64,000 bases of DNA, from contig NC_052158.1 of the NCBI RefSeq assembly GCF_902713615.1, positions 44,293,159-44,357,158 on the forward strand, in the 5' to 3' direction. The notes beneath the pieces were generated by a model that saw nothing but the letters and a program-made list of their open reading frames with translations, was not told the DNA's origin and made no database searches. Position numbers and translations under genes: made by a program. Below are positions 25,344 to 64,000 of the stretch, one piece after another. Each line of letters begins with the position of its first letter. The stretch's first letter is position 1. This DNA comes from Scyliorhinus canicula. Taxonomy: Eukaryota.

Positions 25344-25412
25344 TGCGCTGGTCGGGAATCGAACCCAGATTCGCTACTTGGGAAGCAGCTATGCTCACCA
25401 ACGTACCACCAA
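25344..25412 (-). pseudogene. tRNA-Gly(CCC) pseudogene
   Basis: Mirror of 28672-28743 with 5' end deleted and several stem mutations. Confidence 0.8.
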
Positions 25413-25905
25413 AACCATGCAATGCTTCCTTTGTAATTTGGGGCATGGTTTTGTTCAATTGGCTGGAGAGCTGGTTTGAGATGCAGAGCGAGGCCAATGG
25501 CGTGGACCGGCTGAGATTATTCATGAAGCACAATGCAGCCCTGTCCCTCTTCTGAGGTGTTGTCATCCTCAGGTCAAATCACCATCACTGACATCTTCTC
25601 CTCAAAGGGGAAAGCAGTCTGTGGTCACCTGGTGCATCGGCGACTTTAGCTCTACCTTTTATTTTGTGTATTGAATTTTCTTTAACGCAATTTAATATGC
25701 TCATGAATGAAAGTGTCCTTGTACTTCTTCCGTTTAGCCAGGAGATGGCGCCATTCCGCAATAAATGTGTGGATGCAATTTATTTCTGATGTTCTGGGTG
25801 TCATTACATCGGGCTCTTACTCTGACCCGAGACCTCACCTTGTCCTTGTGTCCTGATGCTGCCGTTTGCACACTGTTTAAGTTATCTTTATTAGTAGACA
25901 TCATT

Positions 25906-28019: not shown

Positions 28020-31000
28020 TAACAAATGATTTCTCAGTCAGAGACAATGAGAGAAGCGAAGCTCAGCATAAACGGTGCTGTGGACACTCCAGGTGCCTGA
28101 TGAAATTAGCAACTAAAACAGTGAGATAATGATGTCCAATAATAAAGATAACTTAAACAGTGTGAGAACGGCAGCATCAGGACACAAGGACAAGGTGAGG
28201 TCACAGGCCAGAGTAAGAGTCCGATGTAATGACACCCAGAACATCAGAAATAAATTGCATCCACACATTTATTGCGGAATGGTGCCATCTCCTGGCTAAA
28301 CGGAAGTAGTACAGGACACTTTCATTCATGAGCATATCAAATTGGAGTGAAATAACATAAACAAAGTAAGAATTCTTACAAAATATTTTCAAGAAAATTC
28401 AATGCACAAAATGAAAGGTAAAGCTAAAGTCGCCGCAGCCCCGGGCGACCACAGGCTACTTTCCCCTTTGAGGGGAAGATCTGAGTAGTGGTGATTTGAT
28501 TTGAGGATTACCACACCTCAGAAGAGGGACAGGGCTGCATTGTGCTTCATGAATAATCCCAGCCGGTTCACGCCATTGGCCTCGCTCTGCATCTCAAACC
28601 AGCTCTCCAGCCAATTGAACAAAACCATGCCCCATGCCACAAAGGAAGCATTGCTGGGTGCTGAGTTGTATGCGTTGGTGGTATAGTGGTGAGCATAGCT
28701 GCTTCCCAAGCAGTGGACCCGGGTTCGATTCCCGGCCAGCACAATGACTTTTAAGCGTCTAACCCTGAGTTTAAAATTGAAGACAAGAAACAGTTCGAAC
28801 GTAAAATTCATGCGAAATTAGGACTGGTTGTGAAATAAAGAACTTTGGCCTCAAACCTTTTTCGAAGGTAAAATTAGGTTTTAATAGTCGTCGATTTGTT
28901 TATTTATTATTTACAGGGCGTTGGAGTCGCTGATGACGGCAGCATTTATTGTCCATCCCTAGTTACCCTTGAGAAGGTTGTGGTGAGTTGCCTTCTTGAG
29001 CAGTTTCACGATTTTGCCCAGCGCCATTGATGGAACAGCAATATATTTCCAAGTCGGGTACTGCTGGACTTCGAAGGGGACCTCCAGGTGGTGGGGTTCT
29101 CTGGTATCTGCTGCTCACAGCCAGACAGACCTGCAATAACCCTCAGTGTAGGAAAGACAACTCTGTCGTTTGACATAAAAGTAAAATACTTGCTGTAAAA
29201 CTGAAACGAAGACAGAAAATGCATCCTTGGTGAAACAGGTTGTTCCAATGAAAGGTCAGGAACTATTTCTCGTTTCACAGATGTTACAGATCCGTAAAGT
29301 ATTTTCATTTGTGCTTTTCCCTTTTGACTTGAGTCCTGCTTCCAGAGGATTTGTTCAGTATTTTCGACGTGTTTTTTTTTAATCCTCTATTTCCACAAAA
29401 TTGTGACATTGAAACTGCTATCACTTCTCCCCATTGTTATCTATTCTGTCGGTATTCACTGCACCGTCTAATGGAGACATACTCACAGGGCAGTGAGAGA
29501 GTTTATTGTTTCAGGTTTCAGGACTCTTTTGGTCCATTCGCAGCAACCGGCTCTCTGCAGAGGAACTCGGAATGCCGAGCCCCTCTTCCAGGAATCAGGG
29601 GACAAAATGTTGGTTGAAGAGTGAATAAAAGGTCTGAGGATTTGGGCTGAGATTCTCAGAGTTCTGGGGACAGAACAAGCTGGTGGAAAAATGAGGCAAT
29701 AGCTGGATACGAGTTTGGGATATTATCCAGTCTGTGCTGGAGCTGGGGGGGGGGGGGGGGGGGAGGATCAGTCGGGGGGCGGTGGAGCGGCGCTGCTGGG
29801 AAGGAAGTTCTCATGTCTGCCCACAAAGCTCAACGTTGGGGTTGAGGCGGTGATCAGGTTCCGAGCAGAGGTTAAAGCCTTTCACTGACTTTCGAGGTAC
29901 ATGTAACCTGTTAAAGTTAATTCCTCCATCCCCTCTTCATAAAGAAAAACTAAATCTGGAGGGAGTTAAAATGAGGTCTCATTCTTTTGTTGAGATCATT
30001 ATTCTCGCACTCTTGAAATGAAATGAAAATCGCTTATTGTGACGAGTAGGCTTTAATGAAGTTACTGTGAAAGTCCCTAGTCGCCACATTCCGGCGCCTG
30101 GCACGGGAATCGAACCGTGCTGCTGGCCTGCTTGAAAAGCCAGCGATTTAGCTGAGTGAGCTAAACCAGCCCCTCTTGACCATAGTCCTGAACTAGAGTT
30201 CCACACAACACTCAGCTCCCACTAAATCCAGGAATAAATACAGTATCCTATTCAAGCGGCAAATCTCGGATAAATATCAGCCAGTAACCGGGGTGATAAC
30301 CCCTCTGCTCCTGTGTCTTCGGCACAGCGTCCTGGCACCACTTAAAACAGAATGATAGGGTGGACATGGCCTCGGTTTAACAACTCCAATAGTGCAGCTC
30401 TCCTTCAATACTGTACTGGAGTGTTAGCCTTGCTCATTACGCACAAATTCTGCAATGGGATTTGAAGATACATCTTGTGTTTCAAAGGTGACAGCGACCA
30501 AGTCAGCCCCAGTGAAAGTGTTTAAGAAATCATCCAATCCACAGATACATGACTGGGGCAATTATGAGGTCATCTCCTGGCAGGTCACATGACAGCTGGA
30601 GCCACAAGGCATCACAATCAGATTTGTGACTGGATTCAAACCCAGATCCTGTCACAATGACTTTTCAAATAAAGCTGTCTGCTGCTTGAAAATACAATAG
30701 TTAAACGTCCCGCTTGACCATGAAGAGAGCTAGAGCGATATTTCCAAAACTAAATCCTTTGACAAAATAGTTGAAAAAAAAACATTGAGATTGAAATACT
30801 GTGAGGCAAAGTCAGGTTATTATTGAGAACTCTACTCAGAGAACGTCATTGGCTAACAGAGAAATCAGGTGAAGAATCCGAGTAAACCAACACCAGACAG
30901 CACGTCAACGTCAAAACTACATCAACTTTTGTGAAGATCAATGAGTAAAATCTGAGTGTTCCAGTTCATCAAGTAGACACATTCTCTGGATGAAGTATTC

Positions 31001-35349: not shown

Positions 35350-36960
35350 TGTTGCTGATTTCTTCAAACTTTACCTAAACGTCAGTTCCACAATTTGAAC
35401 CTACAAATTTGAATATTTCACGGGACACGCTACCCATTGCAGCACAGAGCCAGATGCGTAGGGCGTGTTCCTCTTTCCCAAGAGGGAATTTCTGAACTGT
35501 CCAACAGGCTGTCAAAAAGTTCAGTAATTTGCACAGTAACGATAGTTGAAAAGTACGTTATTGACTGTAAATTGTTTTGGGGCTTCCTGTGGCTGTCAGC
35601 GTGGTGTTTAAAGATAAAAATTATTGTAAACATTATATCATACACACACAATGCCCCATAGACCTACTTTCTGACTCAGCGACCCTGCTCATCACGATCT
35701 ATCAGAAAACCCTAGACGTCCATTACAGACATATTGGTAGCAAGATTATTCAATGTCCGATTTAAAACATTGTCCCACTTCGTTGCTTCTGTATTCGTTC
35801 TATTAATACAGAGGGGGTGATATACCACGGTATGCGATGGTGGTATAGTCGTGACTGCCTGATCATTTCACCCAGGTTCAGTTCCTGGCCATCAGAGTGG
35901 CGAATTATTTAATTAGATATCGCAGGTCAGGTCAGAAAAGGAGGGGCACTCCTCAAATAAAATTCACAAAATATTCTAACATCCATGTCTTACTAACGTA
36001 AAATCCAGCTCCCATTTGTTTTCAGTGGAAACTTTGTTTCAATAAAAGCCGGAAATTAATAAATGAGTTCTCAGTCAGAGACAATGAGATAAGCAAAGTT
36101 CAATATGGACACTCGTGGTGCCTGATGAAATTAGCAACTAAACAGTTAGATAAAGATGTCCACTAAAAAAGATAATTTAAACAGTGTGAGAACGGCAGCA
36201 TCAGGACACAAGGACAAGGTGAGGTCTCAGGCCAGAGTAAGAGTCCGATGTAATGACACCCAGAAGATCAGAAATAAATTGCATTCACACATTTATTGCG
36301 GAATGGTGCCATCTCCTGGCTGACGGAAGTCGTGTGACACGAACACTTTCATTCATGAGCATCCGAAGTTGGAGTGAAATAACATAAACAAAGTAAGAAT
36401 TCTTACAAAACATTTCCAAGTAAATGCAATGCAGAAAATTAAAGATAAAGTTAAAGTCGCCTTAACCCCAGATGACCACAGGCTGCTTTCCCCTTTGAGG
36501 GGGAGATCTGACTGGTGGTGATTTAACCTGAGGATCACCACACTTCAGAGGAACGGCAAGGCTGAGGAGGCGGGGCCTTCATGAGTAACTGCAGCCGGTC
36601 CTTGCTGTTGGTCTTATATGCGTTGGTGGTATAGTGGTGAGCATAGCTGCTTCCCAAGCAGTTGACCCGGGTTCGATTCCCGGCCATCGCAGTCATTTTT
36701 ATGCGCGAAATCGTGACTTTCAAACTGAAGGCCAAAAATAGTTCGAACGCAGAATTTATGCGAAATTAGGGCTGTTGTGAAATAAGCAAGTATATCATCA
36801 ATTTTTTTTTAAAGATGAAATTAGGTTTCAATCGTAGTCTATGTTTTTATTTATTATTTACAGGTTATTAGAGTGGCTGATGGCAGCATTTATTGCCCAT
36901 CCCGAGTTACCTTTAAGATGGTTAAGATGCCTTCTTAAACAGTTTCACGATTTTGCCCCA
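35350..36960 (+). repeat. Direct duplication of the tRNA-Gly unit (vs ~26620-26850 and 27560-29050)
   Basis: Colinear matches such as gtgtttaaagataaaaattattg, cctcaaataaaattcacaaa and ggacacaaggacaaggtgagg. Confidence 0.85.
36620..36691 (+). tRNA. tRNA-Gly, anticodon CCC on a Gly-TCC scaffold
   Basis: 72-nt cloverleaf with one acceptor mismatch (T4:T69); T5 terminator at 36696. Confidence 0.85.
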
Positions 36961-37593
36961 GCGCCAGTTATTGAATGGCAATATATTTCCAAGTTGGATA
37001 CTGACCGACTTAGAAAGGTACCTCCTGGTGCTGAGGTTCTCAGGTATCTGCTGCTCTTGCCCTTTGGGAAGGTGGTCATAGAGTCCATACTGTGCAGAAG
37101 GAGGCAATTCAGCTCATCGAGTCTGCTCGGCCCAATCCCCCAGCCTTTCACCTTACTCCCACCTCAGGGCAATTTCGCATAGCCAATCCACCTAACCTGC
37201 ACAGCTTTCAACTATGGAAGGAAACCGGAACACCGGGAGGAAACCCAGGCAGAACACGGGGAGAAAGCGCAAATTGAACACACACAGTCACCCAGGGTTG
37301 GAATCGAACCCGGGTCTCTGGCACTGGGAGACAGCGTGTAACCACCGTGATGCCCCCTTGACTTTGGAAGCTGCTGCCTGAGGAACCTTGGCGAGTTACT
37401 GCAGTGCATCTTGTAGAAGTTACAAATAGCTGCCACTGTTCCTCTGAGGTGGAGGGGGAGGGGGAGCAATCAGGCTGGCTGCGTTGTGCTGGATGGTTTC
37501 GAGCTTCTTGAGTGTCGTTGCAACTGCACTCATCCAGGCAAGTGGAGAGTATTTGATTACAATCCTGGGTTGTGCCTTATAGATGGTGGACAG

Positions 37594-38548
37594 TGTAGCC
37601 ACCTGAGTTGGCCACTTCCCCAAGTTAAAATGGAGAATCGCAAAGACAGCAGGAAAAATGGACAGTCTAACCAAACAAGCAGTTTTGCAGAGTTCCTGTG
37701 TATCTTGCCTATGTCTCTGTGGCGCAATCGGTTAGCGCGTTTGGCTGTTAACCGAAAGGTTGGTGGTTCAATCCCACCCAGAGACGAGTTGTTGTTCCAC
37801 CCCAGGAATATGTGTTTTTAGGGGCAGCACGTTACCTTGGTGGTTAGCATAAATGCTTCACAGCTCCAGGGTCCCAGGTTTGGTTCCCGGCTGAGTCACT
37901 GTCTGTGCGGAGTTTGCATGTCCTCCCCCCGTGTGTGCGTGGGTTTCTTCCGGGTGCTCCGGTTTCCCACAGTCCAAAGATGTGCGGGTTAGGTGGATTG
38001 GCCATGCTTGGTATGGGATCCAATTGATTGGAAGTAAGCTCGGGGTCGGCCCAAAAAGGCACAAAGCCCCTAGGACTATAAGATAGAGCCCCCAAGGTCA
38101 GTTCACTCTCTTAGCCGGCCCTCCCAGCAGAACATCTCGAAGAACTTGACTGTAAGAAGGAGAGGCCTGGCCAATTGCTGCACCATCAAGTTACTCCCAC
38201 CTCAGGTCAACGCACGCTACGAGATAGACGCTCCTGACCCCTTAGTCCATACCAGCTGGAAGCCTGCAGATTCAGGATTGAGCAAGAGACCATTGTTCCC
38301 TGATCCAGCGGGTTCCCTTATCCAGATAAGTACTGGCCTGTTAGTGGTAGGAATAGCCTAGTATTTTGCTTGTATGCACGAATAGCAATTAACTGTGTCT
38401 TGATTTGAACCTTACTAATTGGTGTATTGAGTCGTTGATCTGAACTTGAACCACGTGGTGGTATCATAAAAGATACCTGGCGACTCTAGAGCTAAGTAAT
38501 AAACCAGAGCCAAGTGGGTGTAAAGCGCACTCACCAGAACGAGCAACA
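37594..38548 (+). mobile_element. Solo LTR of the provirus family with internal tRNA-Asn and SINE cassette
   Basis: TGTAGCCAC...AACGAGCAACA termini; ACAG TSD at 37590-37593 and 38549-38552; flanks rejoin as ...atggtggACAGgctttggg. Confidence 0.88.
37713..37786 (+). tRNA. tRNA-Asn(GTT)
   Basis: GTCTCTGTGGCGCAATCGGTTAGCGCGTTTGGCTGTTAACCGAAAGGTTGGTGGTTCAATCCCACCCAGAGACG; all stems pair; TTTTT at ~37815. Confidence 0.92.
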
Positions 38549-38927
38549 ACAGGCTTTGGGGGGGTACGGAGGTGTGTTACTCACCATAGAATTCCTAGCC
38601 TTTGACCTGCTTTGGTAGCTACAGTATTAACATGGCCAGTTCAGTTTCTGGTCAATGCTAACATCCAGGAGGATGATTGTGGAGGATTTGGCAATGGTAA
38701 AGCCATTGAATGTCATTTCTCCTTCCTGAGCGAGGACTGGAGGAAGGAGAAAGTTGCATTTTCAGCATAGTTTGCAACATCAGGAAGATGGAAAACCTTC
38801 CAGCCAATAGGGGTGCGGCTGTCTAAGCAGATGAGATTCCGACTTTGATGTGCAAAGCAAGACTGCAGGGGCAAAAAAGCCGAAAAATGACTGGATAATC
38901 TGTTTCAGTGATTCTCGTTGATGTTCG

Positions 38928-44990: not shown

Positions 44991-45966
<976 letters not shown>

Positions 45967-49589: not shown

Positions 49590-50390
49590 CTGCCATCACT
49601 TTCTCTCTCCCAAACAGGTTTGATGACCAGACGAATGATTTATCACAGACCTCACACGTGAACATCCTTTCCTGAGCGAGTGCGTTGATGTACATTTAGG
49701 CTCGATAATGGAGTAAAAGATTAATCACACACCTTACATGTTAATGGTTTCTCCCTGGTGTGAATGCGTTGGCATACACAGAGGGTCGATGACTGTGAAT
49801 GATTTGTCACAGATATCGCAGCTGAACAGTCTCTCTCCTATGTGAGTGCATTGGTGGACGCGGGGGTCCGATGATGGCAATCATGATTTGTTGCACACTT
49901 CACACATGAATGCTTTCTCGCCTGTGTGAATCCTCTGGTTTCTCAGGAGCTTGGAGGAATTGGTGAAAGCTACCTCACACCCAAAGGGTGTGTTAGGAGG
50001 CCTGATGATTTCACAAAAGCGTTATCGCAAACTTCGCACATGAATCGTTTTGCTTCCATTGTGCTGCCCTTGCCTTAACAGAGGTTATTACAGGTGCATC
50101 TTGTGCTTTAGAAGATCCTATGAGCCTGTGGAGTGCTCCTCACACTAGAACTGCCTCTGTAGGATTGAGTCAGTGGTTCATGAAACTCATGCAATAATTG
50201 AAGCTCTCACCCCACTTCGAGCGACTGACACTTCTTCCCAGTCTCACCCTGACCGCTCGCACACAGCCGAGCCTTTGGAAAGGTTGGTTCTGATAGAAGG
50301 TTCTACAACACTGACCAGTTTCTGATGCTATGTAAAGCCTCCCTGACCCGGCCGATTTCCAGCACATCAAACAGATAAAGAATAACAAAG
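49590..50390 (-). pseudogene. C2H2 zinc-finger pseudogene, paralog of 54442-55690
   Basis: Broken fingers (FTCEVCDKSF, HTGEKAF) and the same leader (gaaactggtcagtg...gagagcttcaat) as the other ZF copies. Confidence 0.8.
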
Positions 50391-50700
50391 CCTGTGGCCC
50401 CGATGAAATTTCAGCTGAGGGCTTCGGAATTGGTGGACTTGTGCTCACATCAAGACTACATTGAACTCATCCTATGGATTTGGGAGGAAAAAGAACTCCT
50501 CCCAACTGTCTTCAAGGAATAAAAATCAGGCTGTGGAAACGAGTGAGGTATTTCGCTCTTGTTCAGAACAGGGAAAATCCTGACACACATACTTCCTGTG
50601 GCTGAGGAAATCCTCCCAGAGACACAGTGACATCTGTGAATAAACAGCACCTTTGATACAGATTGAAATCTTCTGATCATGTTTGACGATCTTTCACAGG
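50385..50700 (+). mobile_element. RTE-like LINE fragment
   Basis: KACGPDEISAE and ISLL...GKIL...EILPETQ-like motifs. Confidence 0.5.
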
Positions 50701-50839
50701 TTAAATTGACCTTCTTGAAACAATTGGACTGATGTTGGGAGAGGTTGGAGACAGAGACTGCTGAGACAGACAGTGCTTTGGAAGCTCCAGTGTGTGAGCA
50801 CTGGAGAGTAAACAACACAGACACTGTCAGTATAAGGGA

Positions 50840-51555
50840 CGCAGGCGAGCTGGTTCTAAGTCTGTGTTAGGGGTAATTTATTGGCTTGGATAGAAGGCTG
50901 GCTGTTGGACAGAAGAGAGAGAGCTGGGATAAATGGGTCTTTTGTTCTGGATGGCAAGATATAACTAGTGGGGTGCCGTAGGTTTTAGCTCTTGGGCCCC
51001 AACTATTTACAATTTATATCAATGATTTGGATTCAGGGATAGAAGATTCTCTCGACAAATTTGCAGGTGACACTAAAATAGGTGGGACAGTAAGTTGCAG
51101 TGAAGAAATAAGAACCTTACAAATGGATATAGATAGGTTATGTGAGTGGGCCAAAATGTGACAGATGGAATTTAACATGGATAAGTGTGAGGTTATCCAT
51201 TTTGGTAAGAAAAATAGAAACGTAACTTATTATCTAAATGGAGGGTGACTTTGGTGTGCTCCGGTGCAGAGGGATCTAGGTGTCCTTGTGAATGAGACAC
51301 AGAAAACATGCAGGTACAGCAGGTAAATGGAATGTTGGCATTTATAGCTCAAGAAATAGAAGATAATGGTAAGGAAGTGTTCCTGCAACTGTACGAGGTA
51401 TTGGTGAGACCCCATCTGGAGTATTGTACACAGTTGTGGTCCCCTTATTTGAGGAGGGATGTAGTTAATTCTAGGCAGTTCAGAGGAGGTTCACTGAATT
51501 GATTCCAGAGATGAAGGGTTTGTCTTATGAAGAGAGATTGAGCAGGATAGGCCGG
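50840..51555 (+). mobile_element. CR1 LINE fragment
   Basis: TSGVP, KFAGDTK and VRPHLEYCTQLWSP, decayed. Confidence 0.85.
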
Positions 51556-51724
51556 TAAATCGCACCCTTGATTATTCTAATGTACTTCTGCCCAGCTTTC
51601 CCCATTATGCTCTCCATTAACTTGAAGTAATCGCGTATCTGCTCCCTGTGCCTTAACCTGCATCAAATTCTGTTCACTCATTATCCTGTGCTCACTGATT
51701 TACACTGGTTCTCTGGTCAAGCAT

Positions 51725-52492
51725 CCCGTCACTCCCGTCTGCATCAATGGCTCCAAAGTGGAGATGGTCGATAGCTTTAATTTCCAGGGGGTCACCATCA
51801 CCAACAGTCGTCCTGGTCCACTCACGATGATGCAACAGTCAAGACAGCCCAACGTCTCTACTTCCTACGGAAGCTAAAGAAATTTGGCATGTCTGCATTG
51901 ACGCTCACAAACATCGACAGATGTGTCATAGAGAGCATCCTGTCCGGCTGCATCACAGTATGGCAACTGCTCGGTCCAAGATCACAAGAAACTGCAGTGT
52001 GGTAAACCCAGCCCATCACACAAGCTTGCCACACCCACATTGATTTTGTATACACCTCCTGCTGCCTCATGACGGCAGACTGCATTATCAGAGATCCCTC
52101 TCATCCAGGTATTGCCTTCTTCCAGACCCTTCCATCAGGCAGAAGATACAGAAGTCTGATGACCCGCACATCCAGACAAGGGAACAGCTTCTTCCCCACA
52201 GCTACAAGACTCCTCAACGATTCCCCCTTGAACTGATCTGTTCCCTCTGAGAACACTATTCACAACACCCTATGCTGTTCTTGCTCATGTATTTGCTTTG
52301 TTTGGCCCCTTGTTCCGCACTGTAACCAATCACTGTTTGTCGATGTACCATTTGTCAATTTACTCAGTTGATTATTCTCTTTGTCTGCTATGTACATAGT
52401 GTGTACATTCCCTCTGCCCCAGAAAAATACTTTTCTCTGTACTTCGGTACATTTGACAATAAATCAAAATCAAAGCAATCAAATCAAATCAA
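51725..52492 (+). mobile_element. Rex1/Babar-type LINE 3' end
   Basis: QRLYFLRKLKKFGMS and IESILSGCIT motifs; (caaat)n tail. Confidence 0.8.
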
Positions 52493-52999
52493 GCAACACC
52501 TTGGTTTCAAAATTCTCATCCTTTTTTCCAAATCAATTCATGGCTTTTTTGTTCCCCTTCTTTGTAATCTCTTTCAGTTTGACAAACTTCCAAGATACCC
52601 TTAATTCTGGCCTCTTAAGCATTCCTAGTTTTAATCATTCCACCATTGGTGGCTGTGTCTTGGCCCTAAGTTCTGGAATATCCCCTCTCAACCTCTCTGG
52701 CTCTCCACCTTTCTTTCCTACTTTAAGAGATTCTTTGAAACCTACCTCTTTGAAGCTTTTGGTCATCTGATCAAAAATCTCCTTTTGTGGCCTTGTATCA
52801 TTTTAATAATGCCCTGACAAGGACCTTGGGACATTTTATTCTGTTAAAGGCACTATATAAATCCAAATAGTTTTTGTTATCAGATATTTAAACGAGTGAG
52901 CTAGAGACGCAATGGTCTCCTTAAACAGTCAGATTGAATGATACTGACATAGTCGAAATCAGGAAGTGTAAGTCAGTATAAGGTTGAGAAGGTGCGTAA

Positions 53000-54215
53000 A
53001 AGGACAATACAGGATCCTGAGCTCAGGTACAAAAGCAAGGAATTTATGAAGAATCTAAACACTGGTTTGGCGTTGGAATTTTTTCCATTTCTGGACACCC
53101 CATTTTAGGAAGGATGAACAGCCATTAGAGAGAGTGTGGAAAGGATTAATGAGAATGGGGGATGGCGGACTTCAGTTATGAACAAAGGTTGGGGAAGCTG
53201 GGGTTGTTTTCCTTTGAGCAGAGAAGGTTGAAAGGAGATTTGATTTTGTTCAAATTCATGAGAGTTGTAGATAGAGTAAAAATAGCTGTCACCTTTGGTG
53301 GAGCGGGTCAAGAACCAGAGGATACAGCTTTAAAGTGTTTTGCAAAACAAAAACAAAGGCAACATGATTAAATATTTTTTTATTCAGCGAGCAGTTAGGA
53401 TCTAGATTGCATTGCCTGATAGTATGGCGGAGGTAGATTCAATGGCTGCTTTCAAATGGAATTGGATAAGCAGCATAAGATTTAAAATGTGCAGGGTTAC
53501 AGGGAAATTGAATAGCTGAATTGCTTTTGCAGACAGCCAGCTCAGACTTGACGAGCTGAATGGTTTCCTGTGCTGTAACCATCCTGTGATTCCTATATTC
53601 TCAAGTTTAGAAGAATGAGGGAGATCAAATTGAGGTATATAAGATGATAAAAAGTATGAATAAAGTAGACGTGGAGCAGATGCCTCCTCTTGGGCAGTCT
53701 AGAACGAGAGGTCATAGTCTCAGGATAAGGGGTAGCAAATTTAAAACAGAGATGAGGAGAAACTACTTCTCCCAACGGGTCGTGAATCTGTGAAATTCAC
53801 TCCCCAGAGTGTGGTGGATGTTGGGACAGTGAGTAAATTTGAGGAGTTAGACAGATTTTCAATTGGTGAGAGATTGAGGGGTTACGGAGAATGGCAGGAC
53901 AGTCGAGTTGAGGCCATGATGAAATCATTCATGATCATATTGAACGTGGAACAGGCCCGAGAAGCCTTTTCCTGCTCCTAATTCTTATGTTCTAAGAAAT
54001 ATCTATTCTATCTAATTCCACCTTCCAGCTCTTGGTCTGTGGCCCTGCAGGTAACAGCACCTCAAGCACAAATCTGGTGTTCTTGCTTAATAAGGGGATT
54101 TCTGGATCAGGTATTATAGGGAGAAGGCAGGAGAATGGGGATGAGGAACATATCAGCCTTGAACGGAGCAAACGCCATAGGCCGAATGGCCTAATTCTGC
54201 TCCTACATCTTATGG
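53000..54215 (+). mobile_element. Stacked old CR1 3' fragments
   Basis: YEQRLGKLGLFS, RTRGHSLRI and VVNL motifs with CR1 tails. Confidence 0.75.
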
Positions 54216-54441
54216 AGATGTTGGTGTTTGGAGAGAGAGGAGCAGGTGAAACAATCCTGACACATGTCGCACTGCAACAGTTGTCTCTCGTGTGGGTTCA
54301 CTAATGTTCCAGGAAGTCCAACTGTGGGAAGATTTTATTACAGAACTCACATTGATAGGGTTTCTCCCATATGAATCTTCTGGTGTCACACGAGGGTCGG
54401 AGACATGGTGAAAGCTTTTGACAAACTTCACACCTGTAGGG

Positions 54442-55404
54442 TCACTCCCCAGTGTGGATCCTCTGATGGAGCAGGAGGTACGATGACCTTGAGAATGATT
54501 TGTTGCACACCTCACACTTGAATGGTTTCTCTCCAGTGTGAATGCGTTGGTGTACGCAGAGATTCGAAGAGCACGAGAAAGATTTGCCACACACCTCGCA
54601 TGTGAACAGCTTCTCCCCTGTGTGAATCTGTTGGTGCAGTCGGAGGGTTGACGAACACGAGAAAGATTTGTCACACACCTCGCAGGCAAATGGTTTCTCA
54701 CCTGTGTGAATGCGTTGATGTACGTGAAGGTTTGTTAATTGTGAGAATGATTTGTCACACAAGGCACACGTGAAGGGTTTCTCCCCTGTGTGAATGCGTT
54801 GGTGTAGACGGAGGGTCGATGACTGTGAGAATGATTTCTCACATATCTTGCATGTGAACGGTCGCTCCCCTGTGTGAACCCGTTGGTGTAGACGGAGATC
54901 TGATGACCAAAAGAATGATTTTCCACAGAACTCACATGTGAATGGTTTGTTCCCTGTGTGAAGGCGTTGGTGTACATGGAGATTTGATGACCTGGAAAAT
55001 GATTTCTTGCACACCTCACACTTGAATGGTTTCTCATCTGCATGAGTGCGTTGGTGTTTTAGGAGGTTCGATGACTGTGAGAACGATTTGTCACACACCT
55101 CGCATGTGAATGGTTTCTCCCCTGTGTGAATGCGTTGATGTACACGGAGGGACGATGATTGTGAGAATGATTTGTTGCAAACCTCACACATGAATGGTTT
55201 TTCCCCAGTGTGAACACGCCAGTGTGTCAGCAGGGCATATGATTCCGCAAATCCCTTGTTACACATTTCACATTTGAATGGCTTCTCTCCAGAGTGAAAG
55301 TGTTGATGTTTCACAATCATTGATGACCCTGCTTGATCATTCACCTCACACAAGAATGATTTATCTTCCATGTGGGTGTTTGTATGTTGCAACTGGGTCA
55401 ACAT
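54442..55404 (-). CDS. Tandem C2H2 zinc-finger protein (10 intact fingers, no effector domain seen)
   Basis: Repeated CxxC-x12-HxxxH with TGEKPF linkers; ends at TGE-TGA followed by decayed fingers; true start uncertain. Confidence 0.8.
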   Translation of the reverse strand: MLTQLQHTNTHMEDKSFLCEVNDQAGSSMIVKHQHFHSGEKPFKCEMCNKGFAESYALLTHWRVHTGEKPFMCEVCNKSFSQSSSLRVHQRIHTGEKPFTCEVCDKSFSQSSNLLKHQRTHADEKPFKCEVCKKSFSRSSNLHVHQRLHTGNKPFTCEFCGKSFFWSSDLRLHQRVHTGERPFTCKICEKSFSQSSTLRLHQRIHTGEKPFTCALCDKSFSQLTNLHVHQRIHTGEKPFACEVCDKSFSCSSTLRLHQQIHTGEKLFTCEVCGKSFSCSSNLCVHQRIHTGEKPFKCEVCNKSFSRSSYLLLHQRIHTGE

Positions 55405-63741: not shown

Positions 63742-64000
63742 ATGGAAGAGAAACTGTTGAAGTGTGAGTTGTGTGACAAATCATTCTCATGTTTATCCCA
63801 CTTGCGTATCCACCAACGCACTCATACTGGAGAGAAACCATTTACGTGTGAGGTTTGCAACAAATCATTCTCACAGTCATCACATCTCCACAGACACAAA
63901 CGAATTCACACCGGGGAGAAGCTGTTCCGCTGTGACGTGTGTGAGAAAGCTTTCACGCAGTTATCGAACCTCCAGGTCCATCAGACAATCCACACAGGGG
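63742..64000 (+). CDS. C2H2 zinc-finger gene, truncated by the window end
   Basis: [71 protein letters not shown]...; upstream 62980-63660 is the inverted homolog of 55480-56165 with acceptor ttttacag at ~63308. Confidence 0.8.

Follow-up and report, generated by a model that had tools for sequence, protein, structure and literature searches.

How an apparently intact tRNA gene came to lie within the U3 region of a solo long terminal repeat (LTR) is the question raised by positions 37594-38548 of the window, by which we mean the whole stretch of 64,000 nucleotides that was analyzed (G000:C13:44293159-44357158, from an animal genome of 4.2 Gb). The LTR is 955 bp long, starts with TGT, ends with ACA, and carries the duplication ACAG on each side, and the initial annotation was right in describing an LTR with both termini and a target site duplication (TSD). 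The locus is composed of the following parts:

37590..37593, plus strand: left 4-bp TSD (ACAG); 4-bp TSDs are usual among sibling copies.
37594..37710, plus strand: 5' U3 piece of the LTR (LTR positions 1-117), 94-96% to the closest siblings among the best 40 of 11708 and the best 40 of 2138 candidates.
37711..37712, plus strand: 2-nt junction, which may be decayed tRNA leader or LTR microhomology.
37713..37786, plus strand: body of tRNA-Asn(GTT), a pre-tRNA retrocopy that shows two CpG transitions relative to the nearest array gene.
37787..37819, plus strand: 28-nt 3' trailer and T5 Pol III terminator (T5 at 37815-37819), matching the tRNA-Asn genes of an Asn/His tandem array.
37820..38007, plus strand: a single A followed by a SINE that starts with its 5' end (SINE 37821-38007, about 187 nt), as delimited by comparison with the full-length composites L062-L065.
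38008..38548, plus strand: 3' part of the LTR with the rest of U3 (CCAAT, TATAA), R, and U5, and an AATAAA at 38498; 83-88% to 39 other loci (best 40 of 11708 candidates).
38549..38552, plus strand: right 4-bp TSD (ACAG).

The tRNA was called as tRNA-Asn(GTT) by ARAGORN and reached 66.7 bits with Rfam, every stem being paired, which confirms the description of an intact, well-paired tRNA followed by a T5 and the 5' part of a SINE. It keeps the cloverleaf, the A box, the B box, and the terminator, the T5 being located 28 nt downstream. Together with the trailer, the terminator, and the SINE part, it forms a cassette of 297 bp in the sense of the LTR, which takes the place of approximately 200-230 bp of U3. 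In 28 of the 29 close siblings the lost U3 stretch measures 197-232 bp; the 29th (L010) harbors an antisense SINE within the same stretch, an example that SINEs do land there. The replacement as such had been recognized correctly, but its left breakpoint lies at about 37710 and not at 37702. LTR sequence restarts at 38008 and thus, as had been stated, upstream of CCAAT (38020) and TATAA (38077), with a microhomology of just 1 nt (one shared T) at the SINE|LTR junction. The composite has lost its 3' end. About 160 nt of the 3' part of the SINE and its tail are missing, whereas L062-L065 continue into a (GTTCTAT)n-type tail, and the composite lacks a separate TSD here. We take the SINEs of the window to resemble families of cartilaginous fishes.

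Elsewhere in the window there are copies of tRNA-Ser(GCT) and of three tRNA-Gly(CCC) (2477-2558, 25344-25415, 28672-28743, and 36620-36691), the Gly copies being situated in duplicated or inverted blocks at differing stages of decay. Arrays with a period of 84 bp occupy 49671-55387 and 63748-64000, a spacing typical of C2H2 zinc-finger genes.

As the region is repeat-rich and the evidence comes from the assembly, an assembly chimera was considered. The TSD is intact, though, and the surrounding repeat is continuous, as had been noted before: over the empty LTR site, six host-repeat copies can be aligned at 67-78% identity. Moreover, cassette and LTR each carry private substitutions of similar depth, and neither matches another locus, so that an assembly error appears next to negligible as an explanation. 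A word-based listing of sequencing runs returned 24 runs, each with at most 0.20 of the words and none of them an RNA run, and has no bearing either way.

The initial annotation had suggested that an ERV subfamily captured the Pol III gene, spreading it or making use of TFIIIC, and had proposed a search of both cassette junctions for further loci with other TSDs. Of the two, the SINE|LTR junction was searched: a 27-mer across it, allowing up to two mismatches, yielded one match in the 4.2 Gb, the reversed control none. The solo LTR with its cassette is real in this assembly and, judged by this junction, single-copy. In a genome search with the whole LTR, for which the best 40 of 11708 candidates were scored, matches at the 39 other loci are confined to LTR positions 1-117 and 412/415-955 at the most, without any that spans the cassette. 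The search with the 5' piece, scored for the best 40 of 2138 candidates, added 29 further loci. Removal of three duplicates (L144=L028, L157=L013, and L158=L025) from the sibling set of 58 left 55 distinct LTRs from these best-scored candidates, and the cassette is present in none of the 55. Adoption and spread of the tRNA by the LTR family is therefore not supported. It is true that the tRNA in U3, upstream of CCAAT and TATA, retains its A and B boxes intact, and that families of the Helenus/TRIMp3 kind have been proposed to begin by insertion of a SINE into an LTR (Kojima, PMC10886601). Nevertheless, the single junction match in the genome, the 55 siblings without cassette, and two CpG-type changes in the tRNA, which fit methylated decay, make such a capture highly improbable.

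The LTR at 45117-45966, previously taken for a sister copy, turned out to be a second solo LTR of a distant subfamily, which lies on the minus strand, has a GCAC duplication of its own, and is not the partner of the focal LTR. A closer view of the family is given by L069 (G000:C5:46598500-46608400), a two-LTR copy with zf-CCHC, RT, RT_RNaseH, second RNase_H, and integrase pieces. Its gag-pol frames are broken, the family interior comprises about 7.5 kb with gag-pol pieces, and only short ORFs are listed after the integrase. Of the 18 positions of the primer binding site (PBS), 12 agree with tRNA-Asn but 17 with an Arg(TCT)-like end; hence, Asn is not the primer, and a primer link between the cassette tRNA and the LTR element was ruled out. 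The Arg label of the matching end is partly our assumption. Of the four Arg(TCT)-like loci retrieved, three terminate with CCA and resemble PBS-type copies rather than genes. A switch between subfamilies across the cassette was likewise rejected: the mosaic of 5'-type and 3'-type LTR sequence is also found in the native-U3 copies L138 and L164, and therefore marks no switch at the cassette and carries no weight. L138 is the best all-round sibling among the best-scored candidates and differs from the focal LTR by 1.9% in the 5' piece and by 4.7% in the 3' part.

The trailer leads to the source of the tRNA. Alternating tRNA-Asn and tRNA-His genes form a tandem array with units of about 1.6-2.1 kb at G000:C13:36.73-36.76 Mb (L070-L073), and the tRNA-Asn genes of this array carry the trailer of the cassette, the best match being 96% over 107 nt. 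The focal tRNA body differs from the nearest array gene at two positions, both of them CpG transitions, and the trailer at another two. All 18 matches of the cassette to the array stop at the T-run, and in all 15 array genes checked by coordinates the T-run is followed by gene flank and not by a SINE.

Such joins also occur outside of LTRs. At seven dispersed loci (L062-L065, L067, L075, and L105), tRNA-Asn with its trailer is joined to a SINE head. L062-L065 and L067 extend to the full SINE tail, and L105 is 5'-truncated. The seven differ in the length of the T-run, the junction letters, the trailer variant, and the SINE subfamily; no single junction is shared across the dispersed copies. In L062-L064 the sequence in common with the array comprises merely the last 3 bases of the leader and nothing past the T-run. 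The 5' partner was thus copied from RNA, without gene flank beyond the transcript. Around six of the Asn composites the shared flanking words are only 4-7 nt long. An eighth Asn composite includes a different SINE family, has a 7-nt shared word around it, and is located inside a repeat unit (shared length up to about 1.9 kb), with 26 of 28 pattern matches being copies of this unit on unplaced contigs. These amplified copies (L046-L060 and L077-L102) are in many cases still called tRNA-Asn by ARAGORN.

Joining to a SINE is not specific to Asn. A generic pattern consisting of a T-arm motif, 12-42 nt, TTTT, 0-4 nt, and the SINE head gave 69 matches, all of which were fetched, and none in the reversed control. 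They comprise 27 loci with an Rfam-level tRNA over the motif, 15 with a partial tRNA, 21 that are headed by a SINE cut at its T-run, and 6 unclear cases (among them L193, which is SINE-like at 31.8 bits; in L171 a tRNA-Ala does not overlap the motif). tRNA-type heads hence account for 42 of the 69 matches, which rules out an Asn-specific process. The isotypes called include Gly, Leu, Asp, Ser, Glu, Cys, Pro, and Arg, and an insertion at the intron position is kept in several Pro, Leu, and Tyr-like heads, the Tyr label being our assumption. The number of 69 is a lower bound, as one head motif with exact matches was used and the focal copy itself was missed, and since the pattern required the sense layout, it carries no test of orientation. 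A control pattern with an internal SINE 11-mer yielded 34 matches, all of them single SINE copies by eye; it is a weak control, its motif lying downstream of the SINE's own B box. Joins with the same U-run junction occur with U6 as well: among its 30 best copies, 3 run straight into a SINE head, these being full-length copies (L217, L220, and L237).

Several members of the collection deserve mention on their own. tRNA-Pro heads with an intron-like insertion after the anticodon occur in L169, L181, L186, L190, and L194, as well as in L129; intron-bearing tRNA-Pro is unusual in vertebrates. Two three-part composites, namely tRNA-Ala, the head of a second SINE, and a SINE in L171:436-650, and two tRNAs and a SINE in L114:1500-1701, may record two successive jumps each. 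In L209:1522-1665 (G000:C31), a tRNA-Gly(TCC) gene has the first approximately 70 nt of a SINE fused into its 5' end; this gene keeps its SINE-free gene flank, and its trailer is that of composite L118. The Gly(TCC) composites have common trailers and often an A-tailed SINE as partner, and it is possible that a few of them are master copies, i.e., a self-propagating dimeric SINE.

Alternatively, such pairs could have arisen sequentially, in that a tRNA gene or a tailless tRNA copy was present first and a SINE inserted later at its T-run, read-through transcripts possibly spreading the pair. The two orders of events were compared by means of TSDs in 25 of the 27 Rfam-level loci, namely those in which the tail motif was found (L114 and L115 were omitted, having none), with expected counts derived from mismatched flank pairs. 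Words of at least 8 nt are shared between the tRNA 5' flank and the flank of the SINE tail in 5 of the 25 loci (0.17 expected), words of 7 nt in 6 (0.83 expected), and words of 6 nt in 11 (3.71 expected). Between the 5' flank of the SINE head and the tail flank, by contrast, words of at least 8 nt occur in none of the 25 (0.38 expected), of 7 nt in 2 (1.25 expected), and of 6 nt in 4 (3.62 expected). Four of the five composites with long words are Gly-headed with the A-tailed SINE variant, so that the TSD result is strongest there, and the fifth is situated within a GA repeat. The sequential order draws some support from the 20 of 25 composites that lack a TSD of 8 nt or more, and from source genes having been traced for the Asn trailer and one Gly trailer only. 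Against it stand the long words, which surround whole composites and never the SINE alone, the lack of any T-run preference among unselected SINE heads (TTTT precedes 0 of 18), the array genes without SINE, and the variety of junctions and partners. Overall, we regard sequential insertion as very unlikely. The composites are derived from RNA, they arose repeatedly, as independent events with varied junctions and partners, and at least some of them entered the genome as one unit.

The cassette of the focal LTR is a pre-tRNA::SINE chimeric retrocopy, and it is fairly probable that it entered the LTR via non-LTR machinery, with later or simultaneous loss of the 3' half of the SINE and of part of U3. 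It contains an unprocessed tRNA-Asn, reaching approximately from the start site to the terminator U-run, and this Pol III RNA lies in sense and meets the SINE 5' end at its 3' U-tract. A LINE reverse transcriptase (RT) may have copied the SINE RNA to its 5' end and jumped from there onto the 3' U-tail of the nascent Pol III RNA; the second RNA would then have been copied as well and both would have entered the genome as a single insertion. For ligation, a SINE 5' end bearing a triphosphate and a U-tail with a 3'-OH would be expected to be poor substrates. Both ligation and template switching are discussed in the passages on U6/L1 of bioRxiv 10.1101/2025.02.02.635956. Of all loci found, the focal LTR alone brings the cassette together with this LTR family. 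Here, the composite presumably entered at about the time when the LTR itself inserted, and the 3' half of its SINE would have gone together with about 200-230 bp of U3. Whether this loss came about through a later deletion has, in our estimate, slightly less than an even chance; loss in one endonuclease-independent repair event with target deletion seems rather unlikely. With its SINE tail missing and no own TSD, the focal copy bears no direct mark of the proposed route.

The RT of the LTR element itself also comes into consideration. It could have patched a co-packaged chimeric RNA, or a SINE and then a pre-tRNA RNA, into U3 by template switching, the patch having been copied to both LTRs before a solo LTR was formed. 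The cassette lies in the LTR sense, replaces sequence instead of adding to it, and lacks the SINE tail, and retroviruses are described in PMC4997597 as packaging pre-tRNAs and patching in host RNA. Furthermore, the SINE part is 4.2-4.9% (non-CpG) away from its nearest copies, which average 1.7% from one another, and the LTR is about 2-5% away from its nearest siblings. Due to this similar divergence, the ages of the two cannot be put in order, and co-integration by the RT of the LTR element fits as well. However, two or three non-homologous switches would be required, the PBS is not of the Asn type, and the mosaic of LTR types is also present in the native copies L138 and L164. We therefore consider patching by the element's own RT unlikely, if worth keeping in mind. 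Returning to the chimeric retrocopy, the initial annotation had also put forward a local templated insertion after integration. A one-off event is closer to the findings, but the template was not local DNA: the cassette is a chimeric retrocopy of a class that is present at dozens of loci. The focal cassette is most likely a decaying passenger without function for the LTR; the two CpG transitions in the tRNA body are expected of a methylated passenger, even though A box, B box, and terminator remain.

The focal LTR is unique, and greater weight attaches to the class from which its cassette derives. With dozens of pre-tRNA::SINE joins that arose independently, this class would constitute a direct record of the template jump that has long been proposed for new SINE heads. 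The trailers and introns in the composites show that the acceptors are unprocessed, probably nuclear, transcripts, and by its trailer each copy can be assigned to the gene from which it came. A practical consequence is that many of these retrocopies will be annotated as genes by tRNA finders. In a much wider and rather doubtful extension, LINE RT might routinely switch, on reaching a SINE 5' end, to whichever nascent Pol III RNA offers a U-tail, be it a pre-tRNA, including unspliced ones, U6, or a prematurely ended SINE RNA. Promoter-intact tRNA copies would thereby be scattered, of which some might be transcribed, others be amplified afterwards (as with the Asn copies on unplaced contigs, at least 26 in number), and others again become masters of new dimeric SINEs. 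On this view, the focal LTR might have set out to become a Helenus-type element and halted after the first step, while Pol III would still be loaded within its U3.

Such elements offer one comparison with known systems. Helenus, Cassandra, Ajax, and TRIMp3, as presented in Kojima (2024, PMC10886601), have tRNA-derived sequence in the LTR and 4-bp TSDs, and an origin by insertion of a SINE into an LTR was proposed there. All of these are, according to the same account, multi-copy miniature non-autonomous families. The focal LTR shares the tRNA-like sequence with them, whereas it is one solo LTR of a gag-pol family for which no spread was found (one junction match, 0 of 55 siblings), and in place of a pair of LTRs that enclose a short interior, non-coding but for PBS and PPT, the family interior measures about 7.5 kb with gag-pol pieces. 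In its domains alone, the layout of L069 resembles that of lokiretroviruses/Odin, for which a dual RNase H like that seen in L069 is described in PMC9040795; the status of the family as ERV is not established by this. Endonuclease-independent (non-classical) L1 insertions (Sen et al., 2007, PMC1920257) are comparable with regard to the deletion of target DNA and the lack of TPRT signs at the site. They are described there for human L1, whereas here they represent one possible route for a SINE composite. Template switching in the origin of SINE heads is discussed in PMC4494074.

Chimeras of tRNA and LINE-1 in human (bioRxiv 10.1101/2025.02.02.635956) likewise consist of a tRNA and a retroposon that were co-inserted inside one TSD. 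Judged by passages of the main text, those 21 loci mostly contain antisense tRNA halves ascribed to twin priming, whereas whole sense pre-tRNAs are joined at the terminator here. Pre-tRNA retropseudogenes made by L1 without a SINE partner are mentioned in PMC4476161. A search by titles and the beginnings of abstracts, which covered few subscription journals and no repeat databases, returned no description of whole pre-tRNA::SINE chimeras, and absence from print is not established thereby. The closest relatives are the U6-SINE and U6-L2 chimeric retrocopies known from platypus (Mon-1) and anole (AnolisSINE2) (Doucet et al., 2015, PMC4476161). There, too, a small Pol III RNA is found in sense 5' of a SINE whose mobility depends on a LINE other than L1. 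The TSDs of these chimeras are short, and they have been ascribed to template switching; this genome likewise holds U6::SINE copies with that junction (3 of the 30 best copies). In contrast to U6-SINE, the 5' partner here is an unprocessed pre-tRNA with leader, trailer, and sometimes intron, which comes from many isotypes, is mostly full-length, and meets an intact SINE 5' end. Thus, U6-SINE chimeras are known, and what seems to be new here, as deduced from genomic sequence, is the use of whole unprocessed pre-tRNAs as SINE partners in a recurrent class.
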